Sequence record: PX104379.1
Source: a phage
DNA length: 64,000 nucleotides
Strand: one strand, 5' to 3'
The notes beneath the pieces are model-generated. The model was not told the DNA's origin. It saw only the letters and a list, made by a program, of their open reading frames with translations, and did not search any database. Position numbers and translations under genes: made by a program. Shown here piece by piece: positions 11,698-51,120 of this stretch. The stretch's first letter is position 1. Every line of letters starts with the position of its first letter.

Positions 11698-11912
11698 TAA
11701 TAAGTTTCCTTCCAGTAAGTTGTGCCATCTTCAGTAATTTCACGAAATACACCGTAAATTGGTTGTTTATCACCAACCTTTTCATACACATAAACCGAAG
11801 TCAAGTGAGTAAACTTAACGGTATGTTCTTTTTGAACTACTACCAAATCTGGATCGAATAATACATCTTCAAATTCGTCATTAGTGCAATTCTGAACAAT
11901 TTTACGTTTCAT
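11697..11912 (-). CDS. hypothetical protein (71 aa; Cef-sized)
   Basis: ORF track; same size as T4 cef at a comparable position. Confidence 0.4.
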
Positions 11913-15722: not shown

Positions 15723-17042
15723 TCACACATAAAACACATCATAACGACCACGGGTGACACCAACATAAAGAAGTTGTTGGGCCAATTCAGCATCTGCATA
15801 ATGAATACAAGGCGTATAAATGAAAGCACGGTCTACAGACATACCCTGAGCTTTATGGAATGTTGATGCAGGAAGTGCTTTCACTTTACTAAACTGTGAT
15901 TTAGCATCCCAAAAATCACTCCATGGAGCTTTTCCGCCTTTGTTCCAATTTTTATAAGTTTCTGCCGTTTTACCTAAAAATAGGTTAAACTTATACAATT
16001 CTTCATCAGATGAAATTATTTTAATCTTTTCACGATAATATTCATCATCGCCGTAAGTTTCTACTGTTAAATCCCAATGACGAATTAAGTATTCTCCAGG
16101 AACACCACGAGCTTTAACAAACGTTGATGTATACTCTGCTTCTATAATACGAACTAATTGTCCGTTATTAAAAATAATTTCTGACACAGGCTTTCCATCA
16201 ATTTTATATGTTTTAATTAATGGTTCCTGCATTACAATAATTTCACCAACAATAAAATCTTTATCAGTTTCAAAAATCTTTTTACGAATAATGCTATTTA
16301 ACTTGTCAACAGATTTATTCGTAAATGCCATTACGCGATTTTCAAACAAATCATCTAAAGATTTGACGATTGAAAAATAATTTACCATAAAATCGCGTAA
16401 AGCGGTATCACCAGTAAATCCACGTACTCCATGCCCGTCAACAACTTTATCATAAATCCACTTACCGTTACGAACATCAGTAGCTACATCAATAATAGGA
16501 GCATTACTGCGTTTAACTTCAGTAAGTTCACACTGATAAAAATCTTTGTGTGTAAAGAATGGACTGATATAAGCAGTATTTTCTCCTGGGTCAACAGGTC
16601 TAATTTGCTTATTATCGCCTATTCCAATTATAGTACACCACGGTGGGATAGTTGAAAGCAAAATTTTGAAGAGCTTTCTATCATACATTGACACTTCGTC
16701 GCAGATTAATACCCTGCATTTAGCTAAATCTGGTACTTCTTTTTGTTCAAAAAGAACGTTTTCTTCATACGTAACTGGGTTAATTTTAAGAATACTGTGA
16801 ATAGTACTCGCTTCTTTCCCCGACAGTTTTGAAAGAATCTTTTTAGCTGCATGAGTAGGAGCTGCTAAAATAATACCAGTTTCACCCGTAGATATTAAAG
16901 CTTCAATGATGAATTTTGTAAGAGTAGTCTTACCAGTACCAGCAGGTCCATTAATAGTTACATGATGTTTCTTTTCTTTAATAGCCCTCATAACGATGTT
17001 AAAGGCATTTTTCTGGCCTTCTGTCAAATCATCAAATGTCAT
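15723..17042 (-). CDS. dda: Dda DNA helicase (SF1)
   Basis: 439 aa as T4 Dda; Walker A GPAGTGKT; helicase motifs. Confidence 0.92.
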   Translation of the reverse strand: MTFDDLTEGQKNAFNIVMRAIKEKKHHVTINGPAGTGKTTLTKFIIEALISTGETGIILAAPTHAAKKILSKLSGKEASTIHSILKINPVTYEENVLFEQKEVPDLAKCRVLICDEVSMYDRKLFKILLSTIPPWCTIIGIGDNKQIRPVDPGENTAYISPFFTHKDFYQCELTEVKRSNAPIIDVATDVRNGKWIYDKVVDGHGVRGFTGDTALRDFMVNYFSIVKSLDDLFENRVMAFTNKSVDKLNSIIRKKIFETDKDFIVGEIIVMQEPLIKTYKIDGKPVSEIIFNNGQLVRIIEAEYTSTFVKARGVPGEYLIRHWDLTVETYGDDEYYREKIKIISSDEELYKFNLFLGKTAETYKNWNKGGKAPWSDFWDAKSQFSKVKALPASTFHKAQGMSVDRAFIYTPCIHYADAELAQQLLYVGVTRGRYDVFYV

Positions 17043-17350
17043 CGGAAAGTCCCTGCAATTGGAATACTAACAATACGCCCAGTATCTAGAATTCGTTGAT
17101 ATAATCTTTGTGTATCTACATCAGGCTTAACATGTTTAACTTCTATTTTATTAAACCAAAACTTGCGTGGAGTCTCAACTAGTCTTGGAATTCCCATACC
17201 TAAAGCTAGTTTATATTGGTCTTTGAGAGTAGTAAAAACTCTATCAGCAATCTCTCTTTCAAAAAATACAGCAGGACGATGTTCATCAAGTGGAACTGGC
17301 GCAGTAAATCCATCTTTGTCTCGGTAAACTATCGCATATACATAAACCAT
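17039..17350 (-). CDS. hypothetical protein (103 aa)
   Basis: ORF track; overlaps dda start by 4 nt. Confidence 0.5.
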   Translation of the reverse strand: MVYVYAIVYRDKDGFTAPVPLDEHRPAVFFEREIADRVFTTLKDQYKLALGMGIPRLVETPRKFWFNKIEVKHVKPDVDTQRLYQRILDTGRIVSIPIAGTFR

Positions 17351-17351
17351 A

Positions 17352-18122
17352 TTATCCTCGGATAAGTTTAAAAATTGAACAATTTAGCGGGTATCCTCTT
17401 TTCAGTTTAAGTTTATCAATAAAAGACAAGTTTTGATACCGCTCTACACCTTGAATAATTTTATCACACATATCATATTGCATTTCTGCTTCTGACAACT
17501 TTTTCACAATTTTCCAATCCGAGCCTTTAAGAAGAACGTTCAGTTTAACAACTTCAGCGCCTTCTGCTATGCGAGAACCATCAATACGAGCTTTAAGTGC
17601 TATAATCCTTAGCTTAATGTCAGAGGTCTGTTTTGATTTAGAAAGCTGAGAAATGTGTTCAATTCGATTTTCACGTTTTTTCTGTATAGCTTTAATTTGA
17701 TTATAAGTCTTTTTGATTTTAGCCCATTTCTTTTCATCTAAATTTAGTTTATGAACTTTTTTCGCAGATGAACGACCAATTCGCAAAGCAAATAAATCAC
17801 GCTTTTCAATCAACTCTTCTAAAGTATAATCAGAACGAAATGTATTATACTTTTTCTTTACTGCAATAACATTCCCTTTAATGTATCCAACGTTATTATC
17901 AAAACGTTCTAATGATAATTTCTCTCCTTCAATACGATTATCAAAAGGTTCTCCCGAGTAAGCGCAAACTTTCTGATCTAAAATGTTCTTAATGTAATTG
18001 AAGTCTAAGTTAAAATCTTTAGAACGTCTTTTAGCAGATGCCTGAGTGTGCTCTAAACGACGTTTAATTTTACGAATTTGATTATTAGACAGTTTCATAT
18101 TTTTCTCACATCTTACGGACAA
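17352..18122 (-). CDS. Srd-like protein (256 aa)
   Basis: Position between dda and modA as T4 srd; basic and lysine-rich. Confidence 0.45.
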   Translation of the reverse strand: MSVRCEKNMKLSNNQIRKIKRRLEHTQASAKRRSKDFNLDFNYIKNILDQKVCAYSGEPFDNRIEGEKLSLERFDNNVGYIKGNVIAVKKKYNTFRSDYTLEELIEKRDLFALRIGRSSAKKVHKLNLDEKKWAKIKKTYNQIKAIQKKRENRIEHISQLSKSKQTSDIKLRIIALKARIDGSRIAEGAEVVKLNVLLKGSDWKIVKKLSEAEMQYDMCDKIIQGVERYQNLSFIDKLKLKRGYPLNCSIFKLIRG

Positions 18123-18133
18123 TTGACTACTAT

Positions 18134-18163
18134 ACTATAACATTTTTACCTTAACTTGTAAAC
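18134..18163 (-). promoter_or_regulatory. T4-type early promoter for the srd-like gene
   Basis: Minus strand GTTTACAagttaaggtaaaaatgtTATAGT. Confidence 0.6.
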
Positions 18164-18178
18164 AACTTTATGCAAAAA

Positions 18179-18203
18179 TGCTTTAAAACTTTCGTGGTAT
18201 AAT
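18179..18203 (+). promoter_or_regulatory. plus-strand MotA-box middle-promoter-like element (TGCTTTA, 12 bp, TATAAT), antisense to modA
   Basis: Plus strand aaaaaTGCTTTAaaactttcgtggTATAATg; exact match to the middle promoter consensus, also an extended -10. Confidence 0.4.
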
Positions 18204-18220
18204 GAATCTAAGTCCTTCCG

Positions 18221-18823
18221 TTATAGATTAAATCCTTCAAAATCAAGAGTATAGATAGTATATGTTGAATACTTTTTATACTCATATCTATCTGCAATTC
18301 TAAATACACTTCCAGCTGGTATCATTACTTCTTGTTCATCTGAAACTAATTCCATATTACGATAACGATGGCTATCCGGAAACTTAAAGTTTGGATTGTA
18401 TTCTTTACAGCGTAGAGCTTTTATGGCATACTCCTGGAAATTGAATACCATAGGAGCTTTGAATTCAAAAATAACCTGTGTGTTATACTCTAAACCGGAA
18501 GCAAAATGTAGAGCTATATTTTTATCATATGAAGCTGATACGACTTTATCAAATGTAATAATATCAATTCCTTGATTTAATACTTGCTTAGTCTCAGCTG
18601 GAACACCTCTCCAAAGAGGTTTATCGTTTGGTTCCAAACGATATTTGATTATTTCATTTAACCAAGTATGGTCATCTGGCTTATTAGTAATACAATGAAT
18701 TAAAAGTTCAATTTCAGATAAATTAAACCCTTCAGAAAGCAATTCTTCACGAATAGAAGCACGCACCGATGCATCCATTGATTTTATTTTAAAATCTTTT
18801 AGTTGCATTACTGAGTATTTCAT
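18221..18823 (-). CDS. modA: ModA ADP-ribosyltransferase
   Basis: 200 aa as T4 ModA; R-S-E motif (LWRG, SAS, EQEVMIP). Confidence 0.7.
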   Translation of the reverse strand: MKYSVMQLKDFKIKSMDASVRASIREELLSEGFNLSEIELLIHCITNKPDDHTWLNEIIKYRLEPNDKPLWRGVPAETKQVLNQGIDIITFDKVVSASYDKNIALHFASGLEYNTQVIFEFKAPMVFNFQEYAIKALRCKEYNPNFKFPDSHRYRNMELVSDEQEVMIPAGSVFRIADRYEYKKYSTYTIYTLDFEGFNL

Positions 18824-19443
18824 TCAACTACCTCAATATCATAAACTTTAAATGTTCCAAATGAATCGTGTAATTTTTCTTTTGAAATAGAAGTTATTTT
18901 ATACTTTCCAATTGGAATCATCCATTCTTGTTCATGCACAATCATCATTAAGTTATCAGTACGCTCTGAATCTAGCCCATCAGTATCTTCATACGTGTAC
19001 TTAAACTCAGTATTAGGAGAAGAAAGTATAATATCGCTGATATGGTCAGAGTAATTAAAAGCTTTATCAGTTTTTAAACGAAGTATTGTTTCAGTGAAAT
19101 ATTCAGCATAAGAAAAAGAACATGCTGTATGCAAACTAGTAGTAAATGAATCTACCCTGTTCGTTGAAAACACTTCTCCAACTTGTAAATCTTTAATAAG
19201 TTCTTTTGTCGATTTTGATATACCACGATATAACTGATAAGGCGATTTAGTTAAATGCTTTTTAATGATTTTATTCAACTGCCGATGAAGAGCTTCATTC
19301 TTTTTAGCTTCCATACATTGCCAAAGAATTGACTGCTCGAAGTCAGTAAATTTTTCACAGACCTTTTTATACATATCATATTGAAAATCAACGCTTTCAG
19401 CTTTTATAGATAACTGTTCAACATCTGCAAGATTAATAATCAT
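18820..19443 (-). CDS. modB: ModB ADP-ribosyltransferase
   Basis: 207 aa as T4 ModB; R-S-E motif (LYRG, FTTS, HEQEWMIP). Confidence 0.7.
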   Translation of the reverse strand: MIINLADVEQLSIKAESVDFQYDMYKKVCEKFTDFEQSILWQCMEAKKNEALHRQLNKIIKKHLTKSPYQLYRGISKSTKELIKDLQVGEVFSTNRVDSFTTSLHTACSFSYAEYFTETILRLKTDKAFNYSDHISDIILSSPNTEFKYTYEDTDGLDSERTDNLMMIVHEQEWMIPIGKYKITSISKEKLHDSFGTFKVYDIEVVE

Positions 19444-19469
19444 GATAGCCTCCGTATACTTCAGAAGCT

Positions 19470-19499
19470 ATCATATCATCGTTAGAAAGGAAAGTAAAC
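19470..19499 (-). promoter_or_regulatory. T4-type early promoter for modB
   Basis: Minus strand GTTTACTttcctttctaacgatgaTATGAT. Confidence 0.55.
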
Positions 19500-19510
19500 A
19501 ACTTTTTGAA

Positions 19511-19693
19511 TTATTTTGCCCAGGGAGCCCAAGGCGGAGGGTCAAGATGGTATGAAGCTAGTTCTTCTAGAAGAGCATCTGGGGCTTCAATTCCATAATT
19601 CTGTAATACTATACGGTACTCTTTCTTATAATCACTAGAATCATTCTGGATATTCGTAGAATGATTATCTTCTAACATCTCAAATAAATCCAT
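19511..19693 (-). CDS. hypothetical protein (60 aa)
   Basis: ORF track. Confidence 0.4.
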   Translation of the reverse strand: MDLFEMLEDNHSTNIQNDSSDYKKEYRIVLQNYGIEAPDALLEELASYHLDPPPWAPWAK

Positions 19694-19701
19694 ATTAATT
19701 C

Positions 19702-20184
19702 CTAGCGATAAAAACCAAAATGACGATTAGCTTCAGCAATCTTTCTTTCTTCTTCGGACATTCTCCAGCGTAGTCCAACATCAAAATGAGCCCAGACCAT
19801 CTTAACAAATGCATTTATATCTTTAATATCTTCAATAATGAATGTTTTACTTTTAGAAGGCTGACTCGCTAAATTAAGTGCTAATTTAACGTTATCATCT
19901 TCAAACAGGTCAAAAAGACCATATTCATGAGCTCTTTTATAGCCTTTAATAGTTAAAGCTTCGGAAGAAGAAAACGGTGAATCAGTATTTTGCAAAATAT
20001 CTTCAGTATGCTTTATAATTAGAATAATATTTTCTGGATATTTTCTTTCTTTTATATCTTTAATTAAAAAATCCGGATTTTCTGCTAAAGGAATAATTAA
20101 TGAGCATTTTTTATCAAGTGTATTTACTGATTTACCTTCTTTAGACATAAATTCTATTGAATATAGTTTTGCTACTTCAATCAT
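19702..20184 (-). CDS. hypothetical protein (160 aa; Mrh-sized)
   Basis: Size and position correspond to T4 mrh. Confidence 0.45.
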
Positions 20185-23161: not shown

Positions 23162-23185
23162 ATTATACAATAAATATATAAAGCA
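23162..23185 (-). promoter_or_regulatory. MotA-box middle promoter upstream of the HNH gene
   Basis: Minus strand TGCTTTA, 11 bp, TATAAT. Confidence 0.45.
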
Positions 23186-50650: not shown

Positions 50651-51120
50651 TTTAAACTCTTTCTAAGCTGCTTCTTAAATGAAGCTATTAACTGTGTTTT
50701 GGTGTCAGATTCATTATATTCAAATCCTCTTTGAAGCATCTCGGCCATCATTTCCTCTTTTCCTAAACGAGAAAATTCCTTTGATTTATCTCCAACAAAG
50801 TTAGGGTGAATATTATTTTGGGTGTAATCGGATTTTAAATAAGTAAGTAAATTTTCTAACCATTCAAGATAATCAACACCTTGTCCCTTTAAGCCAGAAC
50901 GATTAAATTTATGCTTCATTTGACCTTCTGCGGCATTGCATAGATTACAAAGCAATCCACGCACCTTTCCTGCTTTTGGTCCATTTAATTCATGGTCATG
51001 GTCGAGGTGATTAGCTTGAACATCAGGATTTAGTTCTCGTTGGCAAATTAAGCATTTACCGTTTTGTGCATTATAAAATTTTTGTTTTTCTTCTTTGTAT
51101 AATTTGCCAGTCAATAACAT
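50647..51120 (-). CDS. 49: endonuclease VII gp49 (Holliday junction resolvase)
   Basis: 157 aa as T4 gp49; zinc-binding Cys and His motif. Confidence 0.85.
   Translation of the reverse strand: MLLTGKLYKEEKQKFYNAQNGKCLICQRELNPDVQANHLDHDHELNGPKAGKVRGLLCNLCNAAEGQMKHKFNRSGLKGQGVDYLEWLENLLTYLKSDYTQNNIHPNFVGDKSKEFSRLGKEEMMAEMLQRGFEYNESDTKTQLIASFKKQLRKSLK

Follow-up and report, generated by a model that had tools for sequence, protein, structure and literature searches.

A middle-promoter motif directed against the mod genes is conserved in the srd-mod spacer of T4-like phages

The spacer between srd and modA in T4-like phages carries a motif that matches the MotA-dependent middle promoters of T4 and is oriented opposite to every neighbouring gene. 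We describe it here in the window, by which we mean the whole 64,000-nucleotide stretch of phage sequence record PX104379.1 that was analysed; the phage is a Tequatrovirus, a relative of T4, with a best match that is 98.4% identical across 2.5 kb. Comparison of genomes indicates that the motif is kept by selection, on the same strand and in the same place, in about 13 T4-like genera, and its retention in a dozen or more related phage genera makes it, in our view, almost certainly functional. Judging from sequence and conservation, we favour, with some reserve, the reading that it is a genuine MotA/AsiA-dependent (sigma-appropriation) middle promoter that would fire against the local genes and oppose early expression of mod and srd.

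On the rightward (+) strand the motif reads aaaaaTGCTTTA, with the MotA box TGCTTTA at 18179-18185 and AAAAA directly 5' of it (A-tract and box together, 18174-18185). The box is followed by a 12-bp spacer at 18186-18197 (aaactttcgtgg, also given as AAACTTTCGTGG) that ends in the extended -10 element TGg (18195-18197; TG, 18195-18196), by the -10 hexamer TATAAT (18198-18203) and by the discriminator GAATCT, which leads to the predicted start A18210 (18204-18210). An earlier note on this DNA, made from the letters alone, had read the same box, 12-bp spacer, TGg and TATAAT on the + strand, and that reading stands; it was also right that the motif points rightward amid leftward genes, since dda, dda.1, srd, modA and modB all lie on the - strand, in T4 order. 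By the ORF map and the T4 annotation the motif is intergenic, in the 122-bp srd-modA spacer (18099-18220), which rules out a location inside modA.

The predicted start lies 11 nt past the modA stop codon (18221-18223). modA itself (18221-18823, - strand), identified from its ORF and the annotation of relatives and T4, encodes the RNA polymerase alpha ADP-ribosyltransferase and is the gene that the predicted transcript would oppose; modB (18820-19443, - strand; same basis) is the next gene upstream on the sense strand. On the other side of the spacer lies srd (17352-18098, - strand; 248 aa from the ATG at 18098). A promoter scan places a strong early-type sigma-70 promoter for srd at 18134-18162 on the - strand (TTTACA at 18162-18157, 17 bp, TGt and TATAGT at 18139-18134), so that in the window the rightward motif and this leftward promoter stand back to back, with the MotA box at about -52 to -58 relative to the srd early promoter. 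Further upstream, modB has an early promoter of its own (TTTACT-17-TATGAT, 19498-19470, - strand), and a 14-pair hairpin, TATGATAGCTTCTGAAGTATACGGAGGCTATCATG (19441-19475, - strand), spans the -10 of this promoter, a GGAG situated in the hairpin loop, and the modB start codon; the hairpin would occlude the ribosome-binding site of modB and is similar to the context of a RegB-type target.

The published consensus for middle promoters is (a/t)(a/t)TGCTT(t/c)a, 11-13 bp and TAnnnT, with TGn (Hinton 2010, PMC2988021; Nolan 2006). The segment AAAAATGCTTTA, with its box at 18179-18185, fits the MotA-box consensus, and the box is centred near -29/-30 if the start is 18210. The 12 bp between box and -10 fall within the class range of 11-13 bp, and the TGn present here is found in about half of known middle promoters. 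With spacings of 16-18 bp, only 0-1 of 6 bases match TTGACA where a sigma-70 -35 element would stand, which is what a middle promoter should show. The window also contains motA (1-607, - strand; its first 202 codons, cut by the window edge, with a translation that matches annotated MotA by tblastn), which would supply the MotA that the class requires.

The strict pattern TGCTTYA-N11-13-TATAAT has 4 matches over the two strands of the 64 kb, where shuffled sequences give an expectation of 0.04; the loose pattern TGCTTNA-N11-13-TANNNT has 18 matches in the window against 5.5 expected. Together with the conservation in relatives, the excess of strict matches rules out a chance origin of the motif. 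The three other strict copies are on the gene-sense strand, the srd-modA copy being the only one on the + strand, and the discriminator is similar at sense-strand matches (TATAATGAATCTG, ending near 50738, and TATAATTAATCTA, ending near 23185). A sigma-70 scan found a second promoter-like site on the wrong strand, antisense within the modA.3 homologue (TTGCAA-18-TATAAT, 19990-20033, + strand); it overlaps TGCTTTATAATTAGAATAATATTTT, a loose MotA-pattern match.

T4 carries the identical motif at 11866-11890. Among 17 distinct Tequatrovirus sequences, none of the 15 core positions (box, TG and -10) varies, and in the promoter zone as a whole (18170-18220) 5 of 51 positions are variable, against 22 of 71 in the remaining spacer (Fisher p=0.007); for modA third-codon positions the figure is 52 of 201. 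Polymorphisms at 18189 and 18194 both fall in the 12-bp spacer of the motif. The promoter zone also includes part of a site at 18211-18223 where the T4 modA stop codon shares bases with a TATAAT on the sense strand (CTATAATGG), TTGATT standing 15 bp before it. Through a G/A polymorphism at 18220 the hexamer in the window is TATAAC, so that any sense promoter at this site is not conserved.

Beyond Tequatrovirus the srd-mod spacer has otherwise diverged almost completely, yet the motif is found in the same orientation across about 13 genera, with same-strand copies in Mosig-, Gapriver-, Dhaka-, Karam-, Gelderland-, Jiaoda-, Teguna-, Winkler-, Moon- and Kanagawavirus and in Lazarusvirus (Acinetobacter phage Lazarus). 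Conservation of the motif and its orientation, which the earlier note had named as a check, is therefore seen at both depths: invariant within Tequatrovirus and kept across these genera. A scan of IMG/VR with an Srd profile gave 51 srd loci, and a scan with ModA only gave 6 close loci. In 41 of the 51 srd loci the motif lies on the antisense strand within 450 nt upstream of srd, and it is usually absent from the rest of the locus; the loci are phylogenetically related, so these counts are descriptive and do not represent independent trials.

The 73 motif instances collected comprise 33 distinct variants, and TATAAT is invariant in all of them (73/73 instances, 33/33 variants). Across 16 lineage representatives, information content in bits per column was 1.73 for the MotA box, 0.58 for the spacer, 2.00 for the -10, 1.25 for the six bases after the -10 and 0.55 for the flanks. 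Within the box of these representatives GCTT is invariant and the flanking T's nearly so; after the -10, the G and the T at the fourth position are invariant across the 16 lineages, and the seventh nucleotide is A in 14 of 16. About half of the lineages keep TGn; the others have CGG in its place. The spacer is 12-13 bp long in 32 of the 33 distinct variants and 14 bp in Lazarus. Two fixed blocks at a fixed distance, separated by a spacer of free sequence, are on this comparative evidence the signature of a protein-DNA site.

What changes between genera is the side on which the sense promoter lies. Tequatro-, Mosig-, Gapriver-, Dhaka- and Kanagawavirus have the leftward early promoter on the srd side of the motif, in the back-to-back arrangement. 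Karam-, Gelderland-, Winkler- and Moonvirus have it on the mod side, and there the two -10 hexamers are face to face, 13-14 nt apart, which puts both predicted starts on about the same base pair. No clear sense promoter was found in the srd-mod spacer of Jiaoda- and Tegunavirus. In genera with short spacers the motif is in the srd 5' UTR and adjoins the ribosome-binding site. Constant across genera are the orientation and a predicted start 11-40 nt past the mod stop codon (11 nt in the window). This constant position at the mod 3' end, combined with a sense promoter that shifts, argues against sense-strand explanations such as an UP element or a 5'-UTR element.

Several loci depart from the common layout. 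In three IMG/VR loci (L052, L053 and L068, at about 1250-1445) an inserted 63-codon ORF (MHKFLIMLWYTIDGEHYHSSFEK...) separates the motif from srd, and the motif still adjoins the mod stop codon; these loci have a mod gene similar to that of Kanagawavirus PEi20. In Acinetobacter phage Lazarus the motif, with its 14-bp spacer, has no mod gene beside it, the neighbour being a Tk.4 macro-domain gene. A separate short element, GTCCGTAAGA(T/C)G, closely precedes the ribosome-binding site of srd in Tequatro-, Mosig-, Gapriver- and Dhakavirus (18109-18120, - strand, in the window, and also in L018, L019, L022 and L025). It is able to fold into a 4-bp stem capped by a CGUAA loop, and in Jiaodavirus it sits within the spacer of the antisense promoter.

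The distribution of the motif largely follows that of MotA. Among the relatives and IMG/VR loci, Krischvirus loci and RB43/RB16-type loci are without it; RB49 and RB43 have been reported to lack both MotA and the middle-promoter consensus (Nolan 2006). By tblastn, MotA is present in 1143 phage records, and its record counts equal those of Srd for Enterobacter, Yersinia, Salmonella and Serratia phages; among Escherichia phages there are fewer MotA than Srd records, a deficit of about the size expected if Krischvirus were the cause, as it may be. A MotA-profile scan, limited by its exact-word patterns (it missed Dhakavirus, which is MotA-positive by tblastn), detected MotA on 32 motif-positive contigs and none on 7 motif-negative loci. 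The same scan found MotA on 3 motif-negative contigs, namely the PS2-type L072 and L076, and L079; with three MotA-positive lineages without it, the motif must be dispensable. The association between motif and MotA, as read from these genomes, is good but not perfect, and the loci behind it are not independent. The most divergent box, CGCTTTT, belongs to Gaprivervirus (L019, L020, L039, L040, L042 and L087), whose MotA is only 33-34% identical to that of T4; this may be a case of co-variation between activator and site.

Our literature search found neither a T4 start-site map nor any reference to this promoter, apart from an HMM prediction in RB69 as the only trace; the site may also be listed elsewhere as a prediction. 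The T4 equivalent is not among the 58 mapped T4 middle promoters, a list that does include the neighbouring Pdda.1 (11138) and Pdex.2 (10058) (Hinton 2010, PMC2988021). Its absence may reflect that the + strand was never probed there. The RB69 equivalent is predicted as a + strand middle promoter, Pm:12081, given with an HMM score and left uncommented (Nolan 2006, supplement), and it falls in the RB69 srd-modA spacer. The older T4 record M30001 has only one early promoter annotated.

RNA starting at about 18210 would be antisense to modA and then to modB, as the earlier note had foreseen from the geometry. The predicted product, placed by inference at 18210-18650 on the + strand, is an untranslated antisense RNA over the modA 3' end, with hairpins at 18605-18620 and 18622-18643 as the candidate stop. 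These hairpins are two adjacent perfect palindromes, ACCTCTCCAAAGAGGT and TATCGTTTGGTTCCAAACGATA (18605-18643), located inside modA at +396 to +434 and followed, on the + strand only, by a T-rich tail. They are kept in 17 of 17 Tequatrovirus sequences, in which an AA to TT loop change preserves the palindrome. As a genus-specific feature, they could end an RNA of roughly 430 nt.

Little else downstream is shared. No intrinsic terminator on the antisense strand and no antisense ORF is conserved across genera. The first 200 nt of the predicted transcript in the window fold no better than shuffled sequences, and RNAalifold on 14 lineages returned zero pairs on either strand. Rfam gave no match in the window at 17300-19600 (E<=1) and none at gathering score in 11 related loci, which rules out a known RNA family there. 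Within Tequatrovirus the modA 3' end shows no extra synonymous constraint and no dip in synonymous variation. Past about +10 there is no sequence, structure or terminator common to the genera, and an RNA with a sequence-specific role is consequently not supported. What is conserved is the predicted promoter together with about 10 nt, not an RNA.

The mechanism that we propose would begin with the accumulation of MotA and AsiA 1-3 min after infection, upon which RNA polymerase would start at about A18210 and make an untranslated RNA antisense to modA and possibly to modB. This antisense transcription would oppose the early transcripts that come from upstream of modB, by head-on collision, by formation of an RNA duplex or by both. 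A further effect of polymerase at the rightward promoter would be competition with the srd early promoter next to it: in genomes of the T4 type the bound polymerase would overlap the upstream (UP-element) zone of that promoter, and in Karam-, Gelderland-, Moon- and Winklervirus the coincident starts would make the two open complexes mutually exclusive. Taken together, these actions would shut off the toxic mod genes and srd locally at the early-to-middle transition, with the function residing in the act of transcription or in promoter occupancy.

ModA is highly toxic, and the strategies that stop T4 early transcription are an acknowledged open question (Hinton 2010, PMC2988021). The predicted promoter probably helps to switch off the neighbouring toxic early genes. 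That it is a dedicated and deeply conserved promoter-collision switch, by which the arrival of MotA/AsiA silences the mod genes and the adjacent srd early promoter, is a tentative proposal that we consider possible and put forward with less assurance. If true, it would give a local answer to how specific T4 early genes are shut off and would be the first case of sigma appropriation used for repression and not for activation, in a phage that is the reference system for temporal gene control. A middle promoter that has no gene to serve and stands head-on behind mod genes in about 13 genera suggests that MotA/AsiA are also used to repress, whether by antisense transcription or by promoter exclusion, and it illustrates how promoter scans that drop wrong-strand matches can overlook conserved regulatory elements. 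Since the motif is intergenic and point mutations in it would be silent, the idea is cheap to test.

Four other explanations were weighed against this one, and none is likely. The foremost is that the site binds without productive transcription, with MotA, alone or together with sigma-appropriated polymerase, acting as a roadblock, an insulator or a local sink (the 'decoy' of the earlier note), which would block transcription running on from mod into srd-dda, or else the early promoter of srd, and yield no meaningful RNA. It would agree with the lack of conservation downstream of the start region and with the overlap of the site with the upstream zone of the srd early promoter (T4-type) or with its -10/+1 region (other genera). 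However, TATAAT, the G after it and the spacing of 12-13 bp equal the MotA box in strictness of conservation, which points to engagement of RNA polymerase and not to binding of MotA alone. MotA alone is, moreover, characterized as a weak DNA binder (Hinton 2010, PMC2988021), and Jiaodavirus, Tegunavirus and L052 have no adjacent sense promoter to block. Binding without productive transcription, the decoy included, is for these reasons unlikely and less likely than the promoter reading. A small trans-acting or structural RNA, whose overlap with mod would be incidental, is slightly less likely again. The hairpin and T-run sites of Tequatrovirus at +396 to +434 are in its favour, as is phage Lazarus, where about 170 nt of unusually GC-rich and strongly folded sequence (z = -4.2) come after the promoter and close with a strong hairpin terminator, AAAGGAGCCAAATGGCTCCTTT; this stretch is a candidate small RNA gene by its sequence. 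In the same Lazarus locus (L030, about 1560-1760, - strand of the locus) the box lies within a perfect palindrome, TGTAAAGCACGCGTGCTTTACA, with boxes on both strands. Yet the genera share neither sequence nor structure nor terminator past about +10, Rfam gave no match in the window segment or the related loci, and the folding result in the window was negative.

We think it improbable that the motif serves a replication origin as its primer or R-loop promoter. The T4 origins ori(uvsY) and ori(34) combine a MotA-dependent middle promoter with a downstream unwinding element (Kreuzer and Brister 2010), so known T4 origins do use middle promoters, and the first 100 nt downstream of the motif, at 73% A+T, rank in the top 9% of 100-nt windows. 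The likeness is to a middle promoter whose product is not mRNA; unlike at those two origins, no origin has been mapped at the srd-modA site and no defined unwinding element was found, the downstream DNA being ordinary coding sequence with no conserved element. T4 origins lie near soc, rI.-1, repEA, uvsY and gene 34, with none at 11.9 kb (Kreuzer and Brister 2010). Identity with oriA is ruled out, and the origin idea is thereby weakened, because oriA is annotated about 4.9 kb away with its own promoter (T4 16763, near gene 56/soc; P56/69 at 16813). Least probable of all, and in our view very improbable, is a function on the sense strand, as an srd UP element, an element of the srd 5' UTR or an mRNA processing site, with a merely coincidental likeness to a promoter. 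The location of the T4-type box at -52 to -58 of the srd early promoter would suit it, as would the position of the motif in the srd 5' UTR beside the ribosome-binding site in short-spacer genera. But the sense promoter is upstream, downstream or absent according to genus, so that no single role fits, and the switch of side rules out the UP-element explanation; the sense strand has no consensus RNA structure; and an invariant TGCTTT and TATAAT at 12-13 bp are what the antisense reading predicts.

The predicted antisense promoter can finally be set beside known systems. With T4 MotA/AsiA middle promoters such as PuvsX and P56/69 it shares a box near -30, TATAAT 12 bp on, TGn, the lack of a -35 match and a motA gene in the same genome. 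It differs from them in that it opposes every neighbouring gene and has no gene to express, its conserved partner being the 3' end of a gene and not a 5' end. A parallel in layout is the OOP RNA of phage lambda, whose promoter pO lies just beyond cII and reads back into the 3' end of that gene; OOP, a discrete RNA of 77 nt, ends at a terminator of its own and works through RNase III. Both are promoters a few nucleotides past the stop codon of a dose-sensitive regulatory gene and convergent into its 3' end. Unlike OOP, the srd-modA site has no conserved terminator or RNA sequence and is predicted to depend on a phage activator; in place of a discrete RNA with its own terminator we found only the genus-specific hairpins of Tequatrovirus.

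Face-to-face promoters that act by transcriptional interference are familiar from pR/pL of coliphage 186 and from P2-type switches; in the classic cases tens to hundreds of bp separate the starts, and each promoter has genes to express. The motif resembles these in being convergent with a strong sense promoter, the -10s being 13-14 nt apart in Karam-, Gelderland-, Moon- and Winklervirus, and differs in that some genera have coincident starts and T4 has divergent ones. Transcriptional interference has general treatments in PMC5001618 and PMC6593788, to which we refer for the principle. Antisense transcription of T4 gene 32 (Belin et al. 1987, as cited in Hinton 2010, PMC2988021) is, as far as that citation goes, a precedent for antisense RNA in prereplicative regions at a different locus. 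Middle promoters and antisense or interfering promoters are thus both already known, and what is unusual about the motif described here is its conserved placement.
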